64,000 nucleotides of DNA from assembly GCA_000934665.2 (NCBI GenBank), contig JYFJ02000329.1, positions 62,001 to 126,000 on the forward strand. The letters are read 5' to 3'. This DNA comes from Catajapyx aquilonaris (taxonomy: Eukaryota). The notes under the pieces are model-generated. The model worked only from the letters and a program-made list of their open reading frames with translations. It had not been told where the DNA came from and ran no database searches. The position numbers and the translations under genes are program-made. Within the stretch, counting starts at the first letter, position 1; every line of letters starts with the position of its first letter. Below, piece by piece: positions 39,331 to 64,000 of the stretch.

Positions 39331-42047
39331 AGTTCCTTGCACAACCCTACACACTCACACTGATTAAAGCATCCAGTAAAAGAACATTTTTCACTCCACC
39401 AGCTCCATTCCAGCACTCCCTCACTTCACAATTCACTCGCAACCACTACACCGGTTTAACCTTGTGAGTTTTTACACGCAGACGTCTCCCATGGTCATTC
39501 TCGGTCCGGATAGGCCTATTTTTCTCGCATATCTCGCAACAACATCCGGTGTCAAACAGGAGATACCATGGACCTTGACTGGAGTACTTTTCTGGGATGG
39601 GGCATTACCGGTGACCCCTCGGCGTGTGTGTGTTGGAACTGTCGCCAGCATAGGCCGTCTGCCACATCCCCGGGGGGTGGGAGGGTCGGGGAGGTCTCTG
39701 ATCCGCTTCTTCCACATGATAGGCTAAATAGAAGTGAGGCCGGCCGCATCACCTTGGGGGCAGAAGATGGCATGCACTTCAAGTAGACGTGGGATGCAAT
39801 GATACGAATGCCTTGGGAATAATCTTAAGCATTTATATAGGCTATTGACGGTGGGCAATCACGTCAGGTAGGCTATCGTATAGGGAAACAAAAATGTGCA
39901 AGGACGAGAGTAGGCATGTGCAGGAAATAAACTGCCATTATGGTTCGATTATCGTTCAATTTATGCGTGGTTACCATTTGTGAGACTTTTAATGGATTAC
40001 ACATCAATTGTTATGAGCTTATGGCCAGGTGCAAATAGGCTAATGACTGATTGTACCAGAGCCTGCAATGAAATGTATAGTAGCTTTATACTGCGTGTTT
40101 CATAATTACGTTTACATTTTTTATCGGCAGAAATGTCACGTCCGTATACATTGCAGCAGGGGCGTTTGTCCACAATGCGACAAATAATTACAAATTGCTA
40201 TGCTATAAATAAACTGTTTCAGTCGTGGATTGTTTATCCCAGCAACCAGTTTAAATCAATAGAAATCGAAGGAGACGTGGATGACTGTATGTTATTGCTT
40301 CCAAAAAGTTTATTCCTTCAAATGCAGTGAACCAAGGGGTTAACCACTCGACTGTCAAGTGTACACTGGAGTACCAAATTCAAAGAGTACCAAGGAGTAC
40401 AAAGAGTAGGCTACCTTGCAGTACCACTGCAGGTGTACTGTACACCGGAGTACCGAAATAGTTAACCCCTTGGAGTGAACAATCCACAACCTTCCGACTC
40501 ACTTATTGATCTACGAACTTGAATTGTGCACTAACCTGAATTCAATATAGTGACGTGTTTTTATGCTTATTCATACATGATTGATATTTCCCGATAATAC
40601 AATATTTTTACTTATCATTATTCTGTATATTTTATAGCCCATAACTTCTGACCTGCTTGGTAACACCAGAAGAGACTTAATTGTGCGTTTGTGCATTACA
40701 GGACAAAACTAATGAGAACATACTGTATAACACGGAAAACCCTAATGATGTATTTATCCAAGTGCATTAGTCTATGAGAAAATAGTCTACTATGTAGGGT
40801 CCTACCTTTTATCGCAGGTACTTTCATTGACAATGTAGGCCTCTGCTGGGCCGGTGAAGAATGCCAAGTTCCCTCCGACTGGGGCTATAATCGCCTCCCA
40901 CGGCCTTGTCCCACAAACAAGTAAGTATAGTCAGAACGCACACCGTGTATCCAGTCACATTCACCTGTCAGGGCCAGACGAGCGATTACAATATATTTTT
41001 TATACTCTTACTTATGTTAGAAAGGATAATAAAAGAGAGACACAGCAGCGATAGTAGAGCAAACTATGCCCTGCATATATTGGCGTTTACCTGGCAAGTT
41101 GCACTTAATTAGGCCATTGTTTTATGCAGCTGGTTTAATCATTAGCTGGAAGGATCGAACCTGGAGATATTAAGATTATACTGCAGAGAACATAAATTAT
41201 TATTGTGGAGCAATACTGCGCATTGCGTATGTTCCGCCTATCACATGTCATATGTTATAGTCATAAGGTTGAATTTCCGATTAGTTAAATTATCAATAGC
41301 TATGAAAGAAAAAAAGGAAAAGGGTTTAAATATCTCTAGAAATATTTCATATACAGTATACACAGCCATCGACCCATGGTGTTGAGGAAAATAGCTCATG
41401 TCCTAAAAGGGATTGCATAATTTTATTTAATTTTATGAGGACTATCCAAGCCAAGAAGTAGTAAAGTGCAGTAGGCCCACTGGATGACAGGTGCGTGATC
41501 AACCCTCTGCATGACCTGCATCGTGATCCTGCAATATGCAATTTTAAAAATGTATATGTGATCGGATAGCATATCACGACTAGGAACACCCCCGTCCTCA
41601 TTAGACCCAAAGCCAAAGCCCTTATGTTGATTATACTCCACCCACCGTTCAATAGTACCATGCACGCATATAATCTAACCAGTTGGCACTCTCCACCCTA
41701 CAAAAAAACGGATATCCTATTGTGCGTGTAGGCGAATCAAAGAGCAAAAGTCTGCACCTTTCATTCCCACATCCCATATGCAGAATTTGAATCCCACGTG
41801 TGGCCAGGGATTGGTCCACTTGGATCACGACTTGGATATTCGCGAAGGTTACTCTCAAGAGGGCAGTCCTCGAGCATGAAGCTAGAGAGAGGTGGGGGGA
41901 AAAAAAGAGTTAAGCGATTCCCATTTTGTGTGCGAAGTTCCGTGCAATGGCTGCCATACTTATCGTGACGACCGGCGGATAAGCTAATCACCAGCATGTG
42001 CTAGTTTGTCGCTGTTTTGTGCCGGTCGTTTTAATTAGTGTCGGATC

Positions 42048-42226
42048 ATGGATGTGGTAGCAGGGGTGTACCAGTGGGTGTATGACAAATTTTGGGACAA
42101 GAGGGTGTGGATATCGCCCCATTCGACATGGGAGGAGGTGGAGAAGTACAGGACTCTTGGAGATGTGTTTGTGATACCGATCAGCGCGGCTTTGATTATG
42201 CTACTTACTAGGTTCCTATTAGAAAG
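42048..42226 (+). CDS. Alternative first coding exon (1a) of ceramide synthase D
   Basis: MDVVAGVYQWVYDKFWDKRVWISPHSTWEEV...LIMLLTRFLLER is homologous to the CerS N-terminus (FW..VW.P...W, TM1, ER). It ends in phase 2 at a GTGGGT donor, compatible with exon 2 at 46487. No other CerS exons lie between it and exon 1b. Confidence 0.8.
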
Positions 42227-44819
42227 GTGGGTATTTCCAAGTGATGTTCCTGGAATGTGTTGTAACCTTGGGGGGAAGCAGCCAACCATTTAGTAACTAC
42301 ATATCCCGTGTGCGGTGTGTAGTGCCACGTTATAAATCTGTAGAATAATTTATGAGCCAACAAGTGAATTGTAGTCTATTGAGTAATGCTTGGATAATAT
42401 GCAGTTCATGGACAACTTCTTGGCTTCACATGTTCGTACTGGAATGCACAGCGCAAGAGTAGTGGATTGTTTATCCTAGAAACCGGTTTATAGAAAATAA
42501 TCCTGCTGTCATCAGGATTTATCTAGATTGTTGGTAAGTTACGCAATCGGGACTTTTCCAGGTATATTTTAATATGGGATAATATATGCTACGACATAAT
42601 TACTGCAGATTAGAAGTAACAAGAATAATCAGTGGTTGCAACATTAGCAACACATTTTTTGCACAATTTCTTGGCTGTCTTACTTTCTCTATTCCCAAGC
42701 CCAGTATAATTGGCTTAGATTAGGCCAACACTATGAGGTTCTCATTATAACAATTTTTTTCTATAACCTTAATTGAGAAGCTACTCAGCTGCGGGGCCAC
42801 ACTCGAGGTCAACTTTGGCCTCTCAGCATGGCTCAAAGATTCCAGACGGGAAACCAGTTCAGTAATTGCATCTGAAGGTCGCTAGGAAGGAAACAAATGA
42901 CGAAAATATGCATGCGAAAAAGGACTTCCTTGTGTGAATCCGCCCCTAACAAAACACCCGTTCATGACGTCATACGACCTATTGTGCGTTGCTTAAGCGT
43001 TCACATGAACTGTTTTCATGTTGCTTTACCGATTAGAGAACGGATATGAAATGCAATTGGCGAGACTTTTTGTCACCTCACATGAAAGTATAATCGGTGA
43101 GTAATCGTTCGGGTGACATCATTCGCGGTCGCAATAAAAGATACGACCTGTTCCTATTGGTCCTTTTTTTTTGAAAAAAAAAAGAATGGGTACATTGCGT
43201 CTGCCCTTCATGAAGTGAGTGCCATGCATTTTACCAATGCATTACATTATGCATCCTGTCACACAGCAAAGTAATACAGCACAATGGCCGCATTGATTTT
43301 TTTCGTGAGAAAAATAGCTGCCATATGCAATGCAGCTGAACATTTGGCCCACTTGTTTGAGCACATCTAACCTGAATATGAAGTACAAAAACCGCTGCAT
43401 ATGTATAGACAGCCTTGCAAACTTTCACATCACTTAAGCTTAGCAATATTGTGGCATGTTGCTATTTCATGACAATATGACGTATTATGCAAGTACATTC
43501 AAGGACTGATAACTGCTGTTCTGCATATATGTGCATATTTGGAGTGTACACTCAGCTGTTGTAGCCAGCAGCCCAGTACTCCAGCAGTTTAATTTCATAC
43601 AGCTGATTCTAACTATTGGTAGTCTGTACTTCAGCTGATTAATTAGATCTTCTATTGATTATGCAAGAAGTGCATTACATGAAAGCCGCATCAAGCTATT
43701 ACTATTAGTAGTGCGCTTTGAAAATCCTGCGGAAAATCAATATTAATTTTGAGTCGTTTTCAGTCTTTCTGGATAAAAAAAGCACCCAATGCTTTCTGGT
43801 AAAAGGGTCAATATGACAGAATGGTAGAATAATAATTGTATAATGGTTCCAAGCACGGCCAGGTTCCAAGACGTCCCAGTACTCGTATGACTGAGCGACG
43901 GATAATAATTAATATGCTAGAATGGATCAGAAGCGTGGGAAAATGTTATTCCGGTAATTTTATTGCACAAAAAATTGTGTTTTTCTGAAACGGTCGCAGA
44001 TTTTTTTTTTTACACACACGCATATAAAAAAGATAAGTCCTAAGTTTTGCCCCGTATGCGTGAATAGTATTGAAATTATACACGCAAGTTATTCTGTTGT
44101 CTCCTACTAACACTTTCAGTTACGTTAGCTGTCTAAAAGATTTAATCTGACGTAAACATGTTCATTGGCATTCCTTGCGTTCACCGCTCGCGATAAAATT
44201 GCTGTGGGAAGTGGAATATCGCATTTCACATTTCAATACATTATGTGAGCATTGACCTTGCTCCCAGCAAATTACCTGAAGCGCTACAATAACTCAGCCG
44301 CATGCAAATTAAATAATTTGCATGTTTTCACACCGTGAAATAATTTTTTTAAAAAAAGGTCCGCGTTAACACCATTGTGGAGGACTACTCTGCGTGACAA
44401 TAAAACGACGCGTAACATTAGTTCAAAACACTACAGAAATGTTTGTCCTGTGACATTCCACATTATGGACACTGTTAACTCCTTGAGATACAACCAAATT
44501 ATTGTGGACACACTTTCCCGCCCTCTACCGTATCCACCCCCTGGGATGATTACGATATGCATGTTGGCTCCCCTGCCCTTTTTAAAATACGCTCGCTCCG
44601 TGTCCTGACCGGAGATGACGTCAAGGAGTAGGGTGTATCTCCTCGAGGTGAGGCGCCGCCGCCGCTTTGCCGGAGACTGTGGAAGAGACCGCAAAAGGGC
44701 CCAGGGAGTGGTGCGGTCTCCTGAAGATTGGGGAAGAAGGGCGTTGTTGAGAGAGAGTCTCCTCGGGGAAAATAAGTATTACAGTTTAATTAGATAAGAG
44801 GCCGGATTTAAAAAAAAAA

Positions 44820-47800
44820 ATGGCTGAGAGCGGCGTGTTGTCGGAGCGTTTCTCCGACTGGTTCTGGTCCCCGGCGGTGTGGCTCCCACCGAACGTCACC
44901 TGGGCGGACCTCACCTCCAACGAGCGGATACAATACGCAGACTTCTACCACCTCATGTACCCGCTGCCACTCGCACTAGTCGTCTTCCTCATCAGGATCC
45001 TCGTCGAGCGGTAATGACAAAAACATGAACGCAAGGGGACGGCCCAAAGACCGGTCCACCGTTGCATTGAATGGGTGTCCGGTAGTCGTGGGCAGTACGG
45101 AAAGAGTTTGGTCTGTCGATGCGGTTGCACCTTGCTAAGCATACCTGATCAGTCAGAAGGAGCGTTGTGATTTGTGCTATAATGTTTGATATGGCTTACT
45201 CTGCATGTTTTACTAGGGATTTGTGCAGTTCAAAGCACAGAACATGTTGGAAAAGGCAATATCGTAATGAAAAATGGCAGGGGTCGAAATATTCGGATGC
45301 ACTCCCAAGATTGTCAACTGCACTCCAAACTGAGCCTCGGAGTGCAAAGTTTTCACTCCAATTGGCTCCGCTTTTAAACATGGCTATACCCAGTAATTAA
45401 AAATTAAGCACTCCAAGTAAGCGATCTGGACACAAATTTTAAAATGCTACCCCTGAAATGATGGTAGAATTTTATGATTTTAAGGCATTTCTCATGAGTC
45501 AGCTGCAGTGTGAATCATCCTGGGTTGATGTGATAGTTATGGAGTAATCGAGATAGTGGTACTTTTATATTCGTATAACAGAAATGACGGCAAGAGTTGT
45601 ACTACTGACCTACAGAAACAAACCTGCAACTGTAGTGGGTGATATGGTTGAGTGTTCTTCCAGCTCCAAGTTGGTAGGGGGTGGGAATGTTTTACTCCTG
45701 CACGCTCCTGCATGACAGTGTGGCTTGGGTAAGGGGTCAAAACGCTGAAAATCAATGTGACATTATGGGCAAACCACTGCCAGCATGTAATAAACAGTAA
45801 TATATTGGTAGTGTTGATTCAGCTTGGATTCGTAGAAGGCTGCCATGCAATGGAATTGCAGTACGTTTTCACCCAATCTTGATAGGCACCTGTTATTGAT
45901 TTAAATGGCCTCCACCCTGGTTAGCTTAGCCTCTTGGGTAATTGGTTGTTTACTTCTGTCGTTTTATACAGTTGCTATGAATTAAAACCTAGTGGGCATG
46001 TTACCTGGGGTGATCAGACTAGAAGGGCCTGTGGACAAGGTTGTGTGTGGCAGGAAGCCATTTAGATAATTGGATTGCCTAAGCAGTGTTGCAAAATGAA
46101 TAGGACTTCCATCTTGATAGATGTGGACACTCGTAATTGTATGGGATTGTGGGGATTACAACGTCCAGATTGATCCGTCAATTTTGCATCAGAGTCCCAG
46201 GCAGGAAGGGAGTGTTACTAAAATATTAGGCTTGCGTGACTTTTAATTGGCGTGGGTGGCAAGCTTATTCTGAACAGGGTGAGTGTGTAATGTGTATCAG
46301 AGATTTGCAATGGGAGGCTGACGTTCATCTTCTACCAACTTGTAAAGATGGTAGCGGAACTACATTAAAACTAGTTTCCCAAATAAAATGCTTGAACATA
46401 ATTATGTTGATGCGTGTGTTGATGGGAATAACTCAGAAATTTGGTAATTTAAACAAGCATGAATAACTAACAGTTGAATGTTACAGGTATGTGTACACTC
46501 CATTTGGACTGAGCCTGGGCCTGCGTGCAACCCGTCCGAAGCGTGCTGCCCCCATTGATGTTCTGGAGAAGGCATACAAGGAGAGTGGAACATACAGGCT
46601 GCCCCACAAAAGGGTGCTGGGGCTGGCCAAGCAGGTGGATTGGGAGGTGAGGCAAGTGGAGCGGTGGCTACGACAGAGGCGGAGGCAGGACAAACCAACC
46701 AACCTCGTTAAGTTCTGCGAGAGCGGGTGAGGATTGGTTTAATGCCATTGTTAAGCGGTTCTCTTGGTAGTGCTAGGGTCTCTAAGAAAAGTTCAATTGC
46801 AGGTAAACTCTTACTGCCAAATCTTCCAATTTCGGAGATAAATTTTTGTCATATCACCTGCCAAGATTCTGCTTTTATTGAGATACATTGATGCATGAAA
46901 TGGTTTTGGTACATTTGCATTGTTATTAAATTTAAGTGTTACTTTTTGATAGGAAGTACTAGAAACAGTGTTAATGGTGTTTTTTAACAGGTGGCGATTC
47001 ACGTACTATGTGGCTGCATTCACTTTTGGATTCTATGTCCTGTGGGACAAGTCGTGGTTCTGGGACATCAAGAACTGCTGGTATGAATACCCACATCATG
47101 TAAGTACTTATTTACTGACTGAAATTTCCACCCTGTTGGTATCATTGGGCTGATTGCCAATGTTATTTGCTCCACATGTTTTGAGAACAATGTACAAAAT
47201 AATATCCATGATTTAGTCCTTTCATTGAGGTTAATGTCTGCATAATAATGAATGTTTTATTATCAGACACTGTTGCTCCAGGCTATTGTTCACTTGCAGT
47301 CCTCTTGATCCCTCATGTGTGACAGCCGATGACATTTGCAAGGGACTGATGAAGGATCAATGTTCTGCTTTATGATTATCAATAATCATAAAGCAGAACA
47401 TTGAGAAATTTGTTGATTTTTTTGGTGTGCATGAATGATGAAATTGGTCAATGTTGAGTTTATTAATGATTACCACACAATACTAATAATTCCAATCTCC
47501 AAATCAATTTATCACACATCTCTGGATTACATCATTGTATAGGGAAAGTTTCCAAGGGTTTTTGCTCAACTCATTTTTTTCCAGTGCAATTGGATTTAGG
47601 TAGCCTGACTTTTAAAAAGAACATATTTGACCTCAGTCCATTCATTTTGTAGGGTGTTAGAGTGTAGCTGTCAGTCTCCCCTGTGCAGGGATCAGTTGGG
47701 GAAGGTCATATTTATATTGCGTAGTAGACAATGTTGTTCACGTAACCCTGCACGAAAAATCCATTGTAGTCAAACCTGGCAACCAAGGAGACCATTCAGT

Positions 47801-50800
47801 TGCCCCATCTGGACTTGTTATTGACAGAGCCTCATACCTGGACATACTGGAGAATTACACTCTTTGTCATCAATATTTCCAACTGGAAAATAATGCCTTC
47901 CAACAACACAGCATCACTGTGGGGCATCAGCTGAATCAAGAGTTGCCTGGGAAATCGATAGGCAGGGTTGGGGCAATTGTATGGACTTCTCACAGTGTCC
48001 TAGGGTTCCCGACCTAATAATAATTGAATTATTTTCCTCTGGAGCAGGGGTGGGCAACCTATGGCCTGTGTGCCGGATCAGGCCCGCAGATGCTATTTGC
48101 GTGGCCTGCACAAAAATTTCGGAATTCCTGAAAATGTTTGAAAAATTAAAATTGCAAAATTTTATGCCTGTGCTAAGAAACACATTGTGTTTTAAATTTA
48201 TACAGGCCATTTTCATTGGTATATTTAGCTAATTTTATCGATTTTCAGAGAATTTAATGATAATTTATGCAATTAATGGAAGTTAATTTGAAACGATGGA
48301 TATACCTATTGTAAACTGTTGAATAAGTTGAAATTTTTTTGTTAGATGCGGCCCGTCAAATGTTTAAAAATCTCTATGCTACCCACAGAGAGAAAAGGTT
48401 GCCACTCCTGTTCTAGCGGCATGTGACAAAATATTGCCTGTATCGTCAAGGTCAGAAAGGACCTTTAGCAGTTTACAGACCTCAAAGGTGTACTGTGGCT
48501 ACACCTACATGCCAAACACATGGACTGAGATCAAATATTGCCTGTTTGTTTTGTCAGTGTACTTTGGGTGTCTACATTAAAATTTATTGAAGAAATATGT
48601 TGAAAAACAACTTTGTACTATTTGCTTTGCAAGGATGTAACTCAGGTATGGATGTGATGAGTGAATTTTATGATATTAATGTTTTCTAATGTAATAATAT
48701 CAAGATGCCCACCAATTTTGTGGCTTAAAAGTAATGCAGGGGGTGCTGCAGAAGCAATAAAAAATTTCAGAAATGTTTGTCATATTTACTGAAATAGCTT
48801 TAAGTAAGGAATTAAAGTTTGGGGGAATACTGTAATGAGTATGATTGATGAATATTGCATTGGTCTAGATTTTTACTTTTATTTCAAAATGTGCTGCTGC
48901 AAATTAATCATAATCCAAAATGGGTGGTTCAAAGCCCTTATGGGAAGATAGGTTATTGCTCTAGCCGTATGACTATAAAAGAAGCTTAGGAATGATGACA
49001 CTCATATGACAGTGCACAGTATTGAAGCTTATCATTGGCAACTGCTGATGCCCATTGTAATACTTGGTCAATGCTGCAAGTATTAATCTCTCGGTTATGC
49101 AATAGGATAAGGTTTAAATTCTGTACTTTGCAATCATGACGCTGCCTTGGATAAACTATACTACTATCGGAATATCCTTTTGATGTGTTTGTCAGCCAGG
49201 ATTTTAATTGTCTTGGACAGGCAGGCTGATTACATGAATGGGAGGAAGCATAATTATTAATACACCTACATTCCTAGCAATCTTGTTTGAAGTTTCAAAG
49301 AAATCAATCACTTTAAATTTTTATAATATTATTTGATTTTGCAGCATAACTAGTCTTGATGTAACTCGGTTAAATGAAGAAAAAAAAGAAATTTGAATCC
49401 CATTTAGAGTCATTCCCTAATGCAAGTGGCTAGAGGGCAGAGTTCATGTGGCAGCTAGCCCAAAATTTTATATCCTGTTCTAGAAATTAGGTCACACATA
49501 ATCCATGGCATGACAGAGAAATTATACAGACTGTCATCATTCTGTACATTTGAGATGACTGGCCGGGAATGTTTTCAAAAGCTGCCATGTTTAGGTAAAT
49601 ACAGCATATTCAAAAGTGGTACAGACAAATCCAAAGGTTACTTGTAGAAAGTCAAGAATTGCAAGGACTGCAAATGTTGTGAGATGTTCTGAAGTGACTG
49701 TTTCCAAACAAGCCTAAGGATGTCTGGGTCAATGTGACTACTCATCTGATAATCTCTCAAGGTCATTTTGATCCATCCAATTGTCAAATAAACTTATATG
49801 TCATGTATTTGTAATTTAGTGCCTAATATACATTAATCTTAATCAGACCTTGAACCTTCATGCTTTTTTTGCAGTGTATTATTACGATTGGAGGGAGCTC
49901 AGTAAAAAATTGTGTGAGGATATTACTGTTGTTGTAAAGATCTGTTTGTACCTTGTACCTTGTAAAAGAGAGAGAACTCGCTACAATGAAGGCCTTATGC
50001 ATTACGCCTTATCAGTAATTTTTAATGTAGATGAAGAGAGAATAATTAGGAGCATTTTCATCCTTAGTAGGCCTTTATATTTTCATATGTCTGTCTTCTT
50101 CTAACTGCAGTACCGGTATATCATTACAGGGAATCACTAATGATGATACGTTTCTTCTATCATTGCAGCACATTTCACGTGACGTGTGGTGGTACTACAT
50201 GCTGTCGATGGCATTCTACTGGTCCCTGACATTCTCCCACTTCTTCGATGTGAAGCGCAAGGACTTCTGGCAAATGTTCCTCCACCATCTGACGACCATC
50301 TCTCTGCTAGCCTTCTCGTGGACCAGCAACTTGGTCCGCATTGGGACTCTGGTACTTCTCCTTCATGATGTGGCTGACATCTTCTTGGAGGCTGCTAAAA
50401 TGGCAAACTACTCCCAGCGGGCCTGGGTCTGCGATGTCATCTTCATCATCTTTAGTGTCACCTGGATAATCACCCGACTTGGGATCTACCCAGGATGGAT
50501 CATGTACAGGTGAGCATCAAGTGCTGCACTGGTTGTGTGATACACTGGGCTATTATTAAACAAATATACGTGTTACAGCACACTGGTGGAGGCTCCTGCC
50601 ATCCAAGCTGTGTTTCCAGCCTATTACATCTTCAATACTCTTTTGAGTATGCTGCTCGTCCTGCACGTCTTCTGGACATACTTCATTCTTAAGGTGGCCT
50701 ACCGTGCCTTCCAGTCTGGACAGGTAAAGTACCTCATTTTAAAAACTTTTGCTTGCAGGTCAGTTTTACACTTTATTTAACATAGGGCACAAGAGTAAGC

Positions 50801-54200: not shown

Positions 54201-54876
54201 GCATTACACATTTTGGCTATGTAACTAATTTTTATCATCGTACATTACACAGATTATGTGGCTGTGTTGTGCGATAGCAAATCCAGAACAAATGATTAAT
54301 CCTCCGTGGACAGCATGGATCAATTTGTTCTGAATTGACCATCAATGACACAACCGGCCCTAAGATTCTAAATACAATCAATATAAGGGTGCCAATCCTC
54401 AACTAGTCAATAAATGCATTTATTACGTTACACGTCTGTCACATGTTTGTGAAATTCATGTTAATTTTATCCCCCAAAGTCTCGAGCAAAAGGTAGGCAT
54501 GTCATAATGGCAACACAAGTATTAAAATAATGAAAATCTAATATTACAATAGTTTCTTGTTTGCACCTATACTATGCACCAGATGATTTCTGGAAACATT
54601 TGCTGATCTTTTGCTCGTGATATGTCTGCCCCACTTTTAGTTGGCGGTTGGGAGTTGATTGCCATGCTGATGGAAAATGTTGCAGATGTCAAGCGTCAAA
54701 TACAATAAAGGACATGCCATAATACGAGTAATTACCTGATGATATTAAAATAATCTTGAAGGCACCGCGGGTGTCTTCAGCTCAAGGATTGTGCAATCAT
54801 CCTGCACCTGCCGCAAGAGGGCTGAATGGTCGGCCATGTTGGTAAGGGCATGATCTAGTCAAGAGAGACCGACTGG

Positions 54877-54890
54877 AAAAGATGGCGGCG
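54877..54890 (+). promoter_or_regulatory. YY1/TISU-like motif overlapping the MRPL47 start codon
   Basis: AAAAGATGGCGGCG resembles AAGATGGCGGC, which is common at the starts of housekeeping genes. Motif match only. Confidence 0.4.
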
Positions 54891-56369
54891 TCCAGGTTGT
54901 CTGCCAGGCTCCCGCGTTGCTTTGCCCTCTCCTTTGGACAGGCGAGGCGGACTTCCAGCGCCTCCAGAGCTGCTGGAAGGAGGACCGACATCGCGCACAA
55001 GGCGTGGACCCCCTCAGGCCGGGTGCAGCAGCAGTGGTGAGGACCAGTGTGGGCACGCTAACCATTCCCTAGGGAAAACATGCCCCAATGTTGCCTACAA
55101 TACAAACAGGGCAAACATTCATAGAGCAGTGGGCGATTCATGCATTCATTTGTGGGGCGTCTGTTTCAGGCGCTGCTTCCACTTGAGTGTGACGTGTCGG
55201 GACCTGATGGAGTTCTTTGATGATGAGAAGAACTGGGGGGCCAACGAGGTGCGGGTGGGGCGGGCCTGGAGGAGAGAGGAGCTCAGGATCAAGAGTAGTG
55301 AGGATCTGCACAAGTTATGGTTAGATCAGGGGGGGCTGATAAACTAAATTTATTTTTAAAAATGCAATAAGCAGTCAAGGGAATCAACTTGTGACTGGTT
55401 GTGAATAGAGGGGAAAATACTTGATGAGTGTCAACCAAAGGAAAGAACATGCCAAGACCACAAAATTTTATTCCTCTATTTATAAGCAACCACGTCTGTG
55501 TACTGTTGGAACTGGTTTACTTTCATTTTACTAAACTTAGCTCTATAATTATAATGTTTGTAGTTGAAGTATCACTGTGCTTGGGACATCTGGATTAATT
55601 AATTATTTAATTATTAATAGGACACCTGTTAATCATTGGACAAAATGTGCATAAGTGAAAATTAACCTTTATGAGAATTGGAATGTGTATTGCTTGGATT
55701 TGAATTCCTGACAATATATGCTGTATTTGTGGCCCTGCAGGTACGTCCTCCTGAAGGAACGCAACATGCTGATGACAATGGAGCACTATTACAAAAGTGA
55801 GTGCCGCTTGTTTGCCAACCCGGAGCGTATTGACAAGGTGGAAGAGAGTATGCAAAACTTGGAAGAAGTGATCAGGGAGCGAGATAGAGCTTACTTTGAG
55901 CTCGAGACTGGGGAGACTGGAGAGCGCAGGAAGGTTACCCGCGAGAACATACTTGGTAAAAAATATTTTGTACGCTTGTGGAAAAGGGAGCTGTCTCAAC
56001 ACGAACCGCATTCCAGGTTTGGAAGAGACGAAACATACCACTGAACATGTCGAGCCAAAGGACGGGAACGTTGGGGACTTTGAATTGGAACCAGGCGAGT
56101 GGAAGGATGTCAGGACTTTCAAACTGATGTACCGGGAAAAAGAATACCTCAAGGAAAAGAAAGCTCGCAAGTAAGTCATGTTTTTCGTATTGATGAAATT
56201 GTTGGATTAACATGTTGCTCTTTGCAGTCGTGACTTCCGACTTGTGGCTCAACTGCTCAAAAGGTTTCCAGATATGGATATGGAAGCACTTCAACAAGCA
56301 TATCCAGAAGTGGACATTGAAAGAGCCAAGAAATCCAAGAAAGCTCTGGGACATCGTGACAATTCCTGA
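54882..56369 (+). CDS. MRPL47: Mitochondrial large ribosomal subunit protein uL29m (39S L47), 5 exons, 271 aa
   Basis: Exons 54882-55036, 55170-55319, 55741-55955, 56017-56170, 56228-56369 join in frame (816 nt). Arg/Ser/Ala-rich presequence. Signature [12 protein letters not shown]...[31 protein letters not shown]...[17 protein letters not shown] at 56395-56400. Confidence 0.95.
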
Positions 56370-56966
56370 GCACATTTTCTCTCCCTTGTAGTTTAATAAA
56401 TCACAGCATTTAGTTCCTACTAATTTATTCTTGGTGGTTGCATTGGTATACATGTAATTTGGATTATAAACACATTCTTTGGGGGGTAAGTGAAAGTAAG
56501 TGCAAGTATTTGACAGGCACATTCATAAGTGTACGGGTGATATGCAAGCATATTTATATATCTTTTCTGAGGGTAAAGGTATCAAGGAAAGTAATGAGAT
56601 CACAGCACCACGTAAAGTCACATTTGCAAAAGTGTGCGATTTTATATCCCTCGCACTCAGCCTCACGACAACATTTATTCAGACTAGATTTTTAAAGGTG
56701 CGAGTTTGAGCCAAATCAACTGTAAGAACGTCATCTTTGGTGTTTAAAATGGAAGCCTTATAATCTCTGGTCGGGTGAATGTTATTTACAGTACAATACA
56801 CCTAACATTGGCAATGTTATTTTTTTCTCCCTCATTACTTCCACATAAAAGCTTGTGACTATTGACCTATCACATAAAAGCAACTTATAATACTTATGTG
56901 TACGCATTGGAAAACAACATAAAATATGTTGCGAACTTCAACTAAAAAAAGAAGACCTCTTCCACC

Positions 56967-59900
56967 TTATGAAAATGAGATGGGTTCTTCCAGCATCTCT
57001 TCCCATAAGTGAGACAACAACCAAAATTTCTCTTCGCAGCGATCTGCCAGTCGACTCTTCTCCAGCTCACCAACAGGGAGAGTCAATCCCTGGAGAAGAA
57101 TAACTCCGGTTAATGGCACGTAACATTACATGTTTTCTTTCACTTCTCTCTGTGTACTGACATAAAAACACACAAACAGGTGCAGATCCTAACCTGAAAT
57201 ACATCCTCCCATGCTCCTTTGAGTGCCCCCATGAATCTTCTGAGCTCCCCTGGCATTGCAAAGTAGAGGATCCAGTCCCCACTTCGTTGGTGCGCCTCTG
57301 CACACTCCACCTCCAGAAGGCAGCACTGGCGCTTGTGCATGGCCACTCGGGTCACGCTCCCGACGCCTGCCATGGCAATCAGCGTCGGAGGGCAGTCACC
57401 TGTCTGGTAGGCCACGATCCTGTCTGGCACCAGAGCCAGGCAGCAGGCTGTAGGTGGAGGACCACGTGACATGTCCCCTGCCCCTAATCCTGCCCCTGCT
57501 TCCATGGCTTGCACAAAGGCCTGAAGCCATTCTGAGGCATCATACTCATCAGCAGCGGCAAACTGGTGCCCACCACCTTTCCATACAAGTTCAAAAGCAT
57601 GTGGACGGCCAGCGGCAGAGTCAGACAACCGACGACAACCATGGCAGTCATGTGAGAAGAGAGGAGTGAGCACCTTTGGCATTGGGTTGCTCTGGCTTTC
57701 GAACTGGTACAAGACACCAGCCCTGGAACGGGATAAATCATGCACACTTTGTAACTCGTACGTGGAGGGCAAACTCACTTCAAAATGACGTAGACTGGAT
57801 CCCAGATCCCACCCTGCTGGCGAACCATCAGATGACCATCCTTGATGGGCCCCAGTGGAGTCATAGGTGGGGACGTCTGCACATCCTCCATGTACACCAA
57901 CCCATGGTACAAGAGGAGCGACTCTTCTCCTTTGTCACTCTCCAGATCTGCTATCCGATGGAGGTCATCCATGATTTTGGCAGCAGAGGTCTGCACCACC
58001 GAAGGAAGGGACAAAGGGTGAGTCGGCCATGGAAGAACCCTCCTGGTTGCCAACTCCAAGTGGCCAGCAATGGCCATGGTGGTGAGCTGGTCTCTTGTGT
58101 CCAGCTGGAAGCGATCATGGTGGTCCCGACCCACTAGGCAGACCCACTCCAGGGATGGACCAAGCTGGGGAAGAAAACAAAATCATAATACAAGCCAACA
58201 ACATACCATTACCACAGTACTTTATCACAACTCACCACCACAAAGTCGAGGGCAAGGTAAGGCAGGGAGAAGCAGACCCTGAATCCTCCGCCTCTCCTCA
58301 TTCCCTTCTTCTCTTCAACTCCTACAAAGTACACCCTGTGCATCCCAAGAATAGCTAAAACCAGCTTCGGCTTTCCCGATGAGTGACCGCAGCTGCCAAC
58401 ATACGTCTTGTATATTTCTTCTTTAAGGTCATGTCTGAGCCATGCTGTGACTCTCCTAGATGGCTTGACCTCCCTTCCCACATGGGTATCAAGGGCTCCA
58501 ACCCTGATCTCTTCATCTACATCTGGATCCATCCATGACTGGACTGAAACTCCTGGTATGTACACTGAAGTGTCCAACTTCATGCCCCCACGTACAAGCT
58601 TCTTCATGGGTTTCTTTGGAGGTGGTGGGTCTTCCTGGCCTTCGGGTATTCCTCGCTCACCCAGTTTGGCCACCAGGTTGGCCAAAGGTGTTGGTGGAGG
58701 TAGGCTGGCTGGCGGGTGAGTTGGAACAGCATCTCCAACACACCAACTGTGGCGGTTACCAAATGAGACACGCCGTCGACGGAGTCTTGGTTTTGCATCC
58801 AGGGTACGTAGCACCAGCAAACTGTTTATTCGATTGTCTTGAACTTCGTGTCGGGAGTCAACCTCATCAGTTTTACTAATCACCTCCTGATCGCTGTCTA
58901 AGAAGGCGACTCCTGAGTCACCAGGAGAGGACACCTCACTAATCTGCAGAAAAATCAGTGTTTACATACAACTATAATAATTGCTAATTACTGCACACCA
59001 TTTTAAACACCTTAACATTGACAATCATTACCTCACTCATTTGTGACATGCTTTCACTGCGCAGCTGCCTTGTGAACAGGCCCACGTCCAAGAAGTTAGA
59101 GTCAGCCTCCAAGTCAAAATCCAGACGGTCCAGCCGCTCTGCCAGGCCCACTAAGGTCTCCCACAACTGCTTGTCCCGGAGTACGGCTGTAGGCAGGTAA
59201 TATTTCTTGATTATATCCGAGTTGTTTTTGAAAGACTGGAGGTAGCTGCCAAAGAGCTTGTCGTTGAGGCTGAGGTAGAGCCAGGCGCGGCCTTTCCCAA
59301 TCTGCGTCACCACTGAGGGAAGGTTCTCCACTGTCTCGACCAGCGACTTGTGAGAGAATTCCCGGGCAAATGACCAGTAACCAAGATGGAGCTTACGGAG
59401 GCCATGCAACAGGGCAAAGTCCAGGTTCTGACAGAGTGAGTGTGTGCCTGTTGGCCCAGCTGCATCACCTCCATCTGCTCCCTTCTTGTCCTCACTCTCA
59501 AACTGCTCAACCTGTCACAAAGAAAACCATCCATCAGATAGAAGTTATAGCTTAAATAATCGTTAGGTTATTCATTTTTCATGCTTACTGCAAAATCATG
59601 TGACCACGCAAAGATTAGGCTCCACATTAGAAGTTATTATGTACCAGGGGACACATCATGCATGAGACTGTGTTCATTAACATGACTGATTACTTCATGA
59701 AGAGGAGAACCTAGGACAGCATTTGCATATCAAGTGCAATAATTGTGACCTCCAAGGCAACTCTGTCACATAATGTAACATCAAGTCACATAATGTAATT
59801 TAGCTTTGCACGCAGTATTTTAAAAATATACAGCCACGATTGGGGCAATAATTTCATGTTTTGTTACTTGAAAAGGCTGTTTGATGTGTATGAGCATAGC

Positions 59901-61286
59901 AAGGTCACCTCAATTTAACTATTAAAGTATCGTTTACCAAGGTTAATCCTGTCATGTTTCACTTGAAAAATAAGGCTCAAGCTTGAAGTAACTGCTTACA
60001 TTTGCAGTAACAAGTCAAAAGGTGCTCATGGGCTGAGGTAATCCTGATGTAACACCAGTGTAAACATTTCATTTATTTTTTCAGTGTAAGCTCTGTCTGT
60101 AATCATCCTTTTATGCTTCTCTAGTCTGCCTCAGGTAATTTTATCTTGGACTTTAGAGACCGAAACTTCAGCTATTTCAACAATATTAATACCCCTCAAC
60201 ATATATATTTGAACATTTACGTGCACCTCTAACATGCAACACATTAATTATCATGCTGTGTAATGCTTGTTATAATATTCAGATTAACAGTTGAGTTGAT
60301 GAGAACCATTCCAGGGACAGGAGTTGCAGCTGGTTGGTGGATCTTGTAAATTTACTCCTTTCATTGTGTTGTGGATCATTAAAACTTGGCTTCATTCCAG
60401 CTTGTATTTATTGAACACCAGATACATGTAGTAGAATTATTGATCAGTTCACATCGGCTCTGTTCCTAAAAGATGGTCATCAGAGCGAAAACTCCATACA
60501 ACAGAGCACATGGATAGGCCACCAGGAGCTGCTGTCGTTCCATGGTAAGGGCTGTTACGAAAAGCTTTGACGCTGACAGGGCGCACCACAAGACGGCCAT
60601 GGCAGTCAGAGCCACTCCAACCACGCCCTTCAGGGAGACCAGGATCCCAACTCCAGAGAGGGCAACCATGGGCAGCAGGCAATAGCCCAGCACGCTAACC
60701 GCATTGGCAATGGACACACCAGCCAAACTCATCAGGTTGAGCAGCACGTACATTCCCAGGCAGCCCATCACGCTGATGCCATACACATATCCAAAGTGCG
60801 CTTTCCCCGACAACAACAGGAAAGCGCCAAAAGCCAAGCAGAACACCAGCGGTCCAGCCATGTCCGCATCCTGCAGCAAGCCGTAATCAGTCGCTCGGAA
60901 AGGGTTCAGCACGGCCAGCGTCTTTTGCACGATGCGACTAGGGTTGATCCCAAGCTCCTCCAGCAGCGGCGGCTCATCCTCAAAACTTGTCGCCTCATAC
61001 GTGCCGGGATGCTCATATGTGCTGGGTTGCTCATATGTGCTGGGACGCTCATACATGTTGGGATGCTGAGGCGGTGAAGAATTTAATCTGAATATTATAA
61101 CATCGCTCCAGCATGGTCCATTGCTTCCCAACACATTACAAAAATGCTAAACTAAAGAAGGTGCGTGTCATGCAAAAAAACATGTGCCAGAAGCCATCAT
61201 ATGAGAACAATGAGTCGACAGCAAACCTGTGACAATGCGATTTCCACTTCCCCTAGGATTCTCTCCTTCACGTTTCGGCTCGCCAT
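56967..61286 (-). CDS. PLEKHM2: Pleckstrin homology domain-containing family M member 2 (SKIP)-like, RUN plus PH domains, 6 exons, 761 aa
   Basis: Exons 61286-61227, 59511-59032, 58943-58236, 58164-57779, 57722-57194, 57089-56967 join in frame (2286 nt). The N-terminus VKERILGEV and RUN domain [13 protein letters not shown]...GYW...[13 protein letters not shown]...KKYY match SKIP as I recall it (VKDRILENI, LCEHLDHALLYGL, GRSRAWLYLALNE). C-terminal PH domain CHGCRR...RPHAF...[12 protein letters not shown]. Confidence 0.9.
60407..60412 (-). terminator. Candidate polyadenylation signal of the nested YIPF5-like exon
   Basis: AATAAA on the - strand, ~54 nt downstream of the YIPF stop codon. Confidence 0.65.
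60466..61065 (-). CDS. YIPF5: Intronless Yip1-domain protein (YIPF5/7-like) nested in PLEKHM2 intron 1
   Basis: Uninterrupted [17 protein letters not shown]...[11 protein letters not shown]...[10 protein letters not shown]...GYCLLPM...[22 protein letters not shown]. The first in-frame ATG is at 61056 (196 aa). An in-frame acceptor at 61066-61067 would join it to PLEKHM2 exon 1 (219 aa). The 5' end is uncertain. Confidence 0.88.
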
Positions 61287-62661
61287 CGATGTCTTAGGAC
61301 CCCAGTCTTCCGAGTCAAAAAGGGACGGTGGATGCTGCTCTGGCCCGTCTTCTTGCCACAGAAGCCAGGCCCTCGGAGCCAGAGCAACACACAACAGTCG
61401 ACAAAAAAATCAATCGCAATTCACAGGATAGCAGTCGACATCTTGAATCAGACTGACGGGAAAAAGGGCGCTAACTAATATATTAGTTACGAAGATCACA
61501 CGTGGTTATAATGACGAGTTAAATATGTAAAATCAATTGACACACATGACACTGCATTACAAAATTAACTCGATACATCAAAAAATATGTGTGACTAAAT
61601 ATGCAGAATAATCAGCCCTTAATACGCTACCTAATGAACATATTAAGCCAGAATCGCAATAACTAATATATTACATCGCCCTTGTTATGACGGCAGCGAT
61701 GTTGCCAGATTGCAGGATTCAGTCGCATAATGTGAAATCGGGCATAATTGAATGGCTGGGTATGACCGGTTGGTCAATTGCATTTTGAGGTCCGGTGCGG
61801 TGTTGGAGTGTTGACAAAATGCGGCGGAATAAGCCTGCCACATTTTGCCATTTTGGGTGAGATTGTGTAGCCTATTGATTTGGTTGCCGTTTACGCGCAT
61901 CTTTTGCGCATATCGGCACATGCTCACTGGCCTGCTTTCTTATTGTCTACTAGAAGATGTAATAACAAAGGGGGCGAATTAGTTGGCCGTAATTTGCTGG
62001 GATCGTTTGGGAAGCTATTATTATAGAATGAACAGAGACTGACAAAATGAACTGTTCCAACCGGTTCCTAGGCTAAACAATTCGTAAATGCTATGAGGAC
62101 TCCAGCAGGACTCCATCGCATATACTGGACTCCATGTATATATTCGTTTAGATTTGTAGGCTACACATGTACAGTAGCGTACAATAACACATGGAAACTT
62201 CCCAGGAATAATTCGCAACGCAATAATATCCTGGAATATTATCTTTACGATCAAATTACATAGCACTCTCCTACGTGCATGACTTATTACAGTCAAGAAG
62301 ATGCTGTATACTTATTCAATCCTGAATTGCCCAATTTGGATGTAAAAATTGAGGTCCCACGCATCCCACGAGACTATTATAGGCTATGTTGAAGCTGTTT
62401 ATTGTAGCGCAATCCATGTCGTCATTTTCCTCGTACTGTACAGTACCTTCAGTTATCCTACAATTCTGCAATGAGTAATTTGCGTAGCCTTACAAAGGAC
62501 GATCCTCCTCTGCAGACATTCATTGGCCTGATAGATAGACTACTGCGCTGAGTAGCCTATACCTATTGTGTACAAAATTAATGTGTAAACAATAAGGTAA
62601 AGGGGATGAAGATAAGCTGGTTGGAAATACGTAGCCTATATTATTATTATCTCCACCTTTG

Positions 62662-62856
62662 ACCGAAGCAGTTTGGAGTAGGGGTCTAGGGGATATGGTG
62701 TCCGACTGCTAATCGGGAGGTCCTGGGATCAAATCCCGGGGCCGGCAACTCTGACCGTGGTTTTCTGTGGTTTCCCACGGTCCTTCCCGGAAAATTCCGG
62801 AGTTGTTTCCGTAATTAATAGGCCACAGCCGCTTCCTTCTATCCCTATCCTATCCC
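62662..62856 (+). mobile_element. tRNA-derived SINE (second family)
   Basis: tRNA-like head with a box-B-like GGATCAAATCCC. The body GTGGTTTTCTGTGGTTTCCC...GGCCACAGCCGCTTCCTTC resembles arthropod SINE bodies, and it ends in short CTATCC repeats. Confidence 0.7.
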
Positions 62857-64000
62857 AAAGAGCGCAGTAAAATGAAAGCAAAGAGTTCCAGGCAAATCAA
62901 ACTTCCCCCCCCCCCCCCCCAAAGAGCCGCCGNATTATAATCTCCACCTTTAATATTCAGAAGAACAGTGGTCAGTGCACTACTGACTAACATATTCTGG
63001 AGTCGGGGGGGGGGGGACAAAGACGCGGTCACGCAACCTGGTGTCCTTGGTAGTTATTAGTATGCTAATATGAGCGAATCTGGCCTGCTCCAAGGTTTTT
63101 GTACAAACAGACAATTTTGTAAGGAGCAGCAGGTGTACTTCAGTACTACGGCGGCCAAGGGATGGAATAGGTGGCATCTAACAGCAATATGTGCAGATCT
63201 CTGGTGAGGTTTCTTTTAACTTTATAGCTTATTAACAGCTGGTATGCTGAATGCCCGAAACATATCTACACCAAAGCCGTATTTCGCAAATATAATACGT
63301 CGCGTCGTTGCGGAGGTAAGTTCTACAGCGAAGCGTAGTTCGTATAGTAGCCTATCGTAGTTGTACAAGTGAAACACACGCAGGCCAAAACCCCAGTTTC
63401 AAGATAATCGAAGGCAAAGATTTGACCTTGCACTTGTCTACGTAGGCCTACGACATGCTAATTGGTACAGAAAATCTGGACTTCTTGGCTCATTTTGAAT
63501 CTTGAGGATCACAGCATGGACTTCACTAGACGACATCGACAGCAGGAAAAATTCTACTCTGCGGTAGCCTACCGGTATATTATTCAAAACAGCCAAAGTA
63601 GGACTTAAGTTAGTGGATTATTTAACTTTGCCGATGATAATAATTATATATTCCAAATATTGCTACTGAAACGTTCTATTTGTTTTACAGTTCACCCCGA
63701 TGGCAAAATTGGCAAAAAATGAATGCTACACACCATCATTTAGGTTATCATTATATAATGTTATTTATATTACATCTTTTTTATTTCAGTGCTACTTCGT
63801 GCTGGAGCCATCATTGGCTCCCTTGGGGGGGGGGGGGGTGGATTACCACCATTTTTCTTACGAATTTTCTTTTCAATTTTTCTCTCCGGTGCAGGGATCA
63901 GGATAGGGATTTGTGAGGAGGGTGGAGGGGACACTGGTGCAAGTGCGCTGTCTTAATGTTGGGGGTCGTGTGCAGTCCCCCAGGGGGTCAGGTTGCAAGA

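Follow-up and report, generated by a model that had tools for sequence, protein, structure and literature searches.

A YIPF5-like exon spliced to a first exon that may also start the enclosing PLEKHM2-like gene in Catajapyx aquilonaris

Background

In the cholinergic locus, as described in the relevant passages of PMC7524744, the open reading frame (ORF) of VAChT lies whole in one exon within the first ChAT intron and on the same strand, and the mRNAs of both genes begin with a common exon 1 and arise by alternative splicing. The same passages report that the shared 82-bp exon of the Ixodes cholinergic locus was verified by RT-PCR, and describe a similar arrangement in other metazoans (PMC7524744). 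A related situation is the "hitchhike" scenario of retrocopies, in which a single-exon copy, inserted close to a host gene's 5' end, relies by splicing on the promoter and upstream exon(s) of that gene; a mouse Taf9 retrogene with the first two Ak6 exons, jingwei and TRIM5-CypA are the examples given in those sections of PMC5408686 that treat it. Here we analyse a locus of the assembly GCA_000934665.2 of Catajapyx aquilonaris (contig JYFJ02000329.1, positions 62,001-126,000 of the forward strand), where a YIPF5-like gene and a PLEKHM2-like gene, both on the minus strand, may have such a relationship. All coordinates are those of this 64,000-nt stretch, referred to as the window.

YIPF5 (Yip1A) acts in traffic between the endoplasmic reticulum (ER) and the Golgi, and SKIP, the product of PLEKHM2, couples Arl8-positive lysosomes to kinesin-1. 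If exon 1 is accepted as the first exon of the host, the YIPF5-like coding exon is nested inside intron 1 of the PLEKHM2-like gene on the same strand. We consider it probable, at roughly two chances in three, that one promoter and one first exon (about 61353-61227, minus strand) feed two mRNAs for these unrelated trafficking proteins. Such a common promoter and first exon had been proposed from the letters of the DNA in what we call the original prediction; the splice from exon 1 to 61065 is now seen in RNA, whereas the splice from exon 1 to 59511 is suggested by homology and reading-frame logic.

RNA evidence for the splice into the YIPF5-like exon

Exon 1 is spliced in frame to the YIPF5-like exon at 61065. 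The following features are involved.

61227..61353, minus strand: candidate shared first exon (sequence; junction contig and depth arithmetic)
61066..61226, minus strand: intron removed in the YIPF5-like mRNA, 161 nt, GTTTGC...CCTCAG (RNA joint 61065/61227; boundaries checked in the sequence)
60396..61065, minus strand: YIPF5-like terminal exon (ORF, homologues, contigs over 60396-60884 and 60962-61065)
60407..60412, minus strand: AATAAA poly(A) signal of the YIPF5-like mRNA (sequence; RNA contig stop 11 nt downstream)

The first exon comprises at least 67 nt of 5' untranslated region (UTR), as the RNA contig reaches up to about 61353, and 60 nt of coding sequence, in which the ATG at 61286-61284 opens 20 codons that end at 61227 before the donor CAG/GTTTGC (GT at 61226-61225). 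The YIPF acceptor, ttcttcaccgcctcAG at 61067-61066, follows a tract with 13 pyrimidines in 18 positions, and the exon that starts at 61065 is in phase 0 and in the same frame as exon 1. Its coding part (61065-60466) begins with HPN, continues through an internal Met at 61056 and the Yip1-type membrane domain to a stop at 60468-60466, and is followed by a 3' UTR to about 60396; the ORF has 196 amino acids (aa) if it begins at the internal Met and 219 aa if it begins at that of exon 1. A GTTTT element is located past the contig end at 60396. The original prediction had placed exon 1, the acceptors, the ORF and the AATAAA correctly, all on the minus strand.

The RNA evidence comes from run X1, the only public run matching the stretch (share 0.29), whose kind is unrecorded and whose contigs were placed on 55000-62900. 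Nine joints were found in this range, all canonical GT..AG on either strand: four of them correspond to small PLEKHM2 introns, four belong to a convergent plus-strand gene, and the last is the joint 61065/61227. X1 thus behaves as an RNA assembly, since its contigs skip introns with canonical ends. The contig that joins 61227 to 61065 skips 161 nt reading CT..AC on the plus strand, that is, GT..AG on the minus strand, at a depth of 28.6 and with 104 nt on its shorter side. This is the very junction that had been foreseen, the key point of the original prediction. An in-frame relation alone would have a 1-in-3 chance, but the RNA contig uses exactly donor 61227 and acceptor 61065, and the arrangement is therefore more than chance. 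The expressed gene has two exons, so that its earlier description as intronless is strictly wrong.

The junction contig (60962-61065 and 61227-61353) and contig 4 (60396-60884) together yield exactly the depths observed in three bins. Because these two contigs account for the depths fully, no X1 contig lies inside the bridged 161-nt intron. This bears on the idea that the nested YIPF5-like gene is independent and starts from a site of its own within the 161-nt gap or the acceptor region, and that the junction with exon 1 is a minor read-in or by-product of host transcription. Nested genes with promoters of their own are described as common in the sections of PMC5408686 on this subject, and the ORF does have its own AUG with an A at -3. 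However, the junction is crossed by the only contig that extends into the 5' part of this exon, the depths leave no room for another one in the intron, and the 161 nt upstream appear from their sequence to hold a polypyrimidine tract and an acceptor and no obvious promoter. An independent start of the nested gene is accordingly given very little credence here.

In the spliced YIPF mRNA, which has at least 797 nt, the AUG of exon 1 is the first (context ACATCG/ATGG) and opens the 219-aa ORF. The second AUG lies in the same frame and has an A at -3, so that products of 219 and 196 aa are both possible. Contig 4 stops at 60396, 11 nt past the AATAAA, which agrees with the expectation that the YIPF ORF has a poly(A) signal of its own, although contigs cannot prove a 3' end; likewise, the X1 contigs cannot show transcript starts or abundance.

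The YIPF5-like protein

A homologue search with the YIPF ORF gave 3269 matches at E<=0.001. The best are 63-74% identical, and the named ones among the best 120 are mostly YIPF5 or YIPF5-like. The YIPF5-like protein of the crustacean Daphnia pulex is identical at 127 of 175 positions (73%), without gaps and up to the last residue, and compared to proteins named YIPF5 the ORF shows 60-74% identity and stays collinear up to the C-terminus. Judged from these homologues, the ORF is a genuine YIPF5-type protein, and the search and the gapless Daphnia alignment bear out its initial reading as an intact Yip1-type protein. Like canonical YIPF5 (Yip1A) it keeps the Yip1-type membrane domain, a conserved 12-residue motif and the C-terminus. 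Hydrophobic segments extend over residues 66-195 in a layout as in two of the homologues (P0009 and P0058), according to a crude Kyte-Doolittle scan rather than a dedicated topology predictor.

Pfam returned no family for the ORF at E<=10, not even PF04893 (Yip1 domain), a model that fits this subfamily only marginally. Three homologues that are 63-74% identical reach no more than 31.3-32.0 bits where the cut-off is 28.6, and for this reason we read the miss as a weakness of the model. Taken together with the truncated N-terminus, the missing Pfam match might otherwise suggest that the copy is a decaying retropseudogene and its spliced RNA non-functional noise. We find this barely credible: the ORF is intact at 196/219 aa, its alignment to the crustacean protein is gapless, its hydrophobic pattern agrees with that of the homologues, it is expressed and spliced in X1, and the same Pfam model is weak even for bona fide homologues.

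The cytosolic N-terminus is indeed short, as had been claimed from the ORF. Only 27 aa precede the EPPL motif (50 aa with exon 1), compared to a median of 94 aa in the motif-bearing homologues (115 of the best 120 of 3269), only nine of which have fewer than 60 aa before it; a long Q/Y/P/G-rich N-terminus was not found. The protein further differs from canonical YIPF5 in four tandem hexapeptides and in its first 20 residues, which would come from another gene. The hexapeptides, of the form xPxxYE, are encoded by an 18-nt repeat.

60994..61067, minus strand: tandem repeat, 18-nt unit, 4.1 copies (TRF score 99, 83% matches, no indels)

Because the array begins at the acceptor AG and includes the internal ATG of the ORF, a short N-terminus rich in Y/P may have been rebuilt by local tandem expansion. 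When residues 1-45 of the protein were used as query, none of 12 candidates scored, and no relative of the short N-terminus was found. When 106 homologue N-termini were compared with the window in search of a canonical upstream YIPF exon, only low-complexity matches appeared, none of them credible on the minus strand of 61354-64000. The homologue search of the 64-kb window found one YIPF copy only.

The PLEKHM2-like gene and its first exon

The remaining parts of the host gene are as follows.

59512..61226, minus strand: putative PLEKHM2-like intron 1, 1715 nt, enclosing the whole YIPF5-like terminal exon (sequence and homology)
59032..59511, minus strand: PLEKHM2-like exon 2, 160 aa, RUN domain (Pfam and PDB match; 3' boundary set by RNA joint 58943/59032)
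56967..58943, minus strand: PLEKHM2-like exons 3-6 (58943-58236, 58164-57779, 57722-57194 and 57089-56967 including the stop; RNA joints)

Exon 2 matches the Pfam RUN domain (E=7.7e-19, 68.6 bits), and its best solved structure is the RUN domain of human PLEKHM2 (PDB 8jca_B, E=1.7e-22), ahead of PLEKHM1 at 2.6e-15. When exon 2 was searched exhaustively, 428 relatives came up; the best are about 900-1150 aa long, with a RUN identity of about 40-44%; a word search of the RUN exon against longer proteins gave 769 candidates, none of which scored. These matches uphold the assignment of the host gene as PLEKHM2-like. RNA joints in X1 define the four downstream introns (88, 71, 56 and 104 nt), and joining exons 1-6 gives an open product of 761 aa in the spliced translation. 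The C-terminal PH domains remain below the Pfam cut-offs (PH 22.8 bits, cut-off 25.1; PH_PLEKHM2 13.3 bits, cut-off 22) in tests of single exons, which split the domains, and a C-terminal motif around "SEWLQ" is common to the orthologs by eye only. The host gene resembles PLEKHM2/SKIP in its N-terminal RUN domain, in the VK[DE]RIL helix that exon 1 would supply and in a putative C-terminal PH-like region, and differs in its 761 aa, as compared to roughly 900-1150 aa in most orthologs listed, its six exons with short downstream introns (56-104 nt), its RUN identity of only about 40% and its low PH scores. As a whole (56967-61286, minus strand) it is unusually compact and divergent.

Exon 2 starts at 59511 after the acceptor tttgtgacAG, with an in-frame TGA directly before the acceptor codon, and has no ATG before its far end and hence no start codon of its own. 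In the alignment with 8jca_B, residue 25 of the query pairs with residue 44 of the chain (a 19-residue offset), so that exon 2 lacks about 19-20 residues at its start, against 20 encoded by exon 1. The N-termini of orthologs begin with M..[LV]K[DE][RK]I[LIV], a motif present within the first 60 aa in 21 of the 150 RUN matches listed, and exon 1 has VKERIL at residues 6-11, which fits the N-terminal helix of the orthologs ahead of the RUN core. From this homology and the reading frame we infer that exon 1 is also spliced to 59511 and would serve as the first exon of the PLEKHM2-like gene too.

Exon 1 was further compared with other candidates. All 147 phase-0 first exons of the form ATG../GT on the minus strand of 59512-64000 were each joined to exon 2 and scored with a profile built from the N-terminal 200 aa of 19 orthologs. 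The score rises only with 61286-61227, which ranks first of the 147 (from 144.7 to 151.6 bits, +6.9), and with a longer variant of this exon (148.4 bits); the 145 others stay at or below the no-exon score of 144.7. This test replaced a 24-column profile of the 19 ortholog N-termini, which was set aside as too short.

Several observations weigh against a shared first exon. The 24-column profile ranks exon 1 only 250th among 3261 window peptides, matching VKERIL only, and has as its top match an unrelated peptide, ILSNISKSIKNI at 40989-41063 on the minus strand (E=0.0015), which lies 16 kb beyond the 3' end of the PLEKHM2-like gene and is judged a chance match. The gain of 6.9 bits from exon 1 is modest. 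No joint 61227->59511 was seen in X1, which has no cover over 59180-60395, a span with the exon 2 acceptor side of that junction and whatever exon might lie from the YIPF poly(A) site to exon 2, and so gives no evidence either way. The support for the splice into the YIPF exon is itself one contig from one run of unrecorded kind, and its joint is flagged "between: not known". Finally, a PLEKHM2-like motif was found in the first 80 aa of none of the 120 best YIPF5 homologues (of 3269), which, together with the empty search with residues 1-45, gives no sign of a conserved arrangement.

Exon 1 could accordingly belong to the YIPF5-like gene alone, as part of an ordinary two-exon gene. The PLEKHM2-like gene would then start from an unseen first exon with its own promoter, located in 60395-59512 or else upstream of the window, and the VKERIL likeness would be a coincidence. 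This is in line with the fact that the sole RNA junction seen from exon 1 leads to the YIPF exon and that the short N-terminal profile does not pick exon 1; moreover, YIPF5-like genes of two exons, one of them encoding the Yip1 domain as a whole, exist in another eukaryote (see below). On the other hand, 145 other candidate first exons did not improve on the score of exon 2 without any exon, the roughly 20 residues and the place of the motif that the orthologs and the human RUN structure call for are exactly those of exon 1, and no YIPF5 homologue among the best 120 begins with such a peptide. Overall we regard an exon 1 used by YIPF alone as unlikely, and favour an exon 1 that starts both genes.

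Origin and conservation

The original prediction suggested that the YIPF5-like copy perhaps arose by retroposition, for which we found no positive evidence. No A-run follows the 3' end past 60396, and the search for target-site duplications flanking the copy gave repeats at chance level only: the flanks have in common only one direct repeat, a perfect 10-mer (at 60237 and 61129), and by our own arithmetic about 0.6 such pairs are expected by chance in 1151 nt. Retroposition is thus possible but unsupported. The copy may be either a 5'-truncated retrocopy that captured a host exon, or the result of a DNA-level move of a Yip1-domain exon with its own acceptor, which is an equally good explanation. 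In either case the 18-nt unit at the start of the exon would later have expanded in tandem.

Metagenome contigs contain four YIPF loci that are 42-57% identical to the window protein; none has a RUN domain nearby, and they thus give no information on synteny. Two of the contigs, from an AT-rich eukaryote (L002, 4440-5507, and L003, 1007-2065), carry a YIPF5-like gene of two exons, one of which encodes the whole Yip1 domain and follows a phase-1 intron 8 aa before EDEPP. The protein is 55% identical to the window protein and only 45-51% to three typical long YIPF5 proteins (P0002-P0004). With the whole domain encoded by one exon after an ordinary intron, this gene shows that a Yip1 domain in a single exon is no diagnostic sign of retroposition. 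The lineage of the window is also intron-poor, PLEKHM2 having five introns here, four of them of 56-104 nt. Close relatives of the organism seem to be absent from the sequence collections searched, with a best YIPF identity of 74% and a best RUN identity of about 40-44%, and the searches for conservation are shallow.

Proposed mechanism and implications

We propose that the transcript from the common promoter can be processed in two ways. In the one seen in X1, exon 1 is joined to the acceptor at 61065 and followed by one large YIPF5-type exon that ends near 60396 after the AATAAA. In this mRNA exon 1 gives the first AUG and 20 in-frame codons, so that a 219-aa protein can be made, and leaky scanning to the second in-frame AUG, with its A at -3, can give the 196-aa protein. 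Where the YIPF acceptor and poly(A) site are skipped, exon 1 would be spliced to 59511 instead, and the compact PLEKHM2/SKIP-like protein of six exons and 761 aa would receive from it both its start codon and its conserved N-terminal helix (VKERIL...). A proximal 3' splice site with intronic polyadenylation would compete with a distal 3' splice site; in other words, the YIPF exon would be a skipped alternative last exon.

If both halves of this proposal are true, two unrelated membrane-traffic proteins have a common promoter, a common start codon and the same first 20 residues, and their relative output is set by the proximal acceptor and poly(A) site versus the distal acceptor. The locus would then be a clean natural case for the capture of host exons by nested genes and for splicing versus intronic polyadenylation. 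It would also be a warning for annotation, in that automatic pipelines may merge or mis-start the two genes. The principle as such is not new, given ChAT/VAChT and the retrocopies that hitchhike on the 5' exons of a host, and no long-standing question is opened by the present case.

A bolder version would see here a trafficking locus that is fixed and co-regulated, and no mere insertion accident. The organism would then have no YIPF5 other than this YIPF5-like gene, whose ancestral long cytosolic N-terminus would be lost; its expression would depend wholly on the PLEKHM2 promoter, and its product would carry the first 20 residues of the PLEKHM2 RUN-domain helix. How much ER-Golgi factor is made relative to the lysosome-kinesin adaptor would be decided by the choice of splice and poly(A) sites, in what would amount to a counterpart of ChAT/VAChT with a coding shared exon. 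We think this improbable and mention it as speculation.

Neighbouring sequences

Other parts of the window hold the following features.

62656-62900: mean word depth of about 16,900 in X1, many variant contigs and loose ends, one of them reading GGTTCGAATCCCGGA (tRNA-like)
54859-56228, plus strand: convergent MRPL47-like gene, Pfam MRP-L47 at E=9e-13 and 5e-15 on two exons
42039-50777, plus strand: ceramide-synthase-like gene, TLC domain at E=4e-32

The first of these is probably a highly repeated, expressed short interspersed nuclear element derived from a tRNA; Rfam gave no match at gathering score over 59000-64000. The introns of the MRPL47-like gene (57-421 nt) are confirmed by X1 joints, and its 3' end approaches the 3' UTR of the PLEKHM2-like gene. 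The ceramide-synthase-like gene includes a weak homeodomain-like exon (46467-46727) with 17.1 bits, below the cut-off.

Comparison with known systems

Among the papers searched, none names both YIPF5 and PLEKHM2. The comparison with known systems is one of architecture and of likely origin. In the latter respect the retrocopy hitchhike is the closest analogue. The YIPF5-like copy differs from it in having no poly(A) remnant and a flanking repeat at chance level only. From TRIM5-CypA in particular it differs in that the host would give only 20 residues and no functional domain.

In architecture, the cholinergic locus (ChAT/VAChT, of the unc-17/cha-1 type) is the closest analogue. The products of ChAT and VAChT act in one pathway and their locus is ancient and conserved, whereas YIPF5 and PLEKHM2 have no known common pathway and no conservation of the arrangement was found among the best 120 homologues. 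In the cholinergic locus a nested single-exon ORF lies in intron 1 of a host on the same strand, as it would here, and an RNA was found here that joins the candidate shared exon to the nested exon. In the passages of PMC7524744 on the structure of the cholinergic locus, the ORF of VAChT and the shared exon are described as separate ("second exon ... spans its entire ORF"). By contrast, the exon that the YIPF5-like and PLEKHM2-like genes would share carries an AUG and 20 codons in frame with both ORFs.

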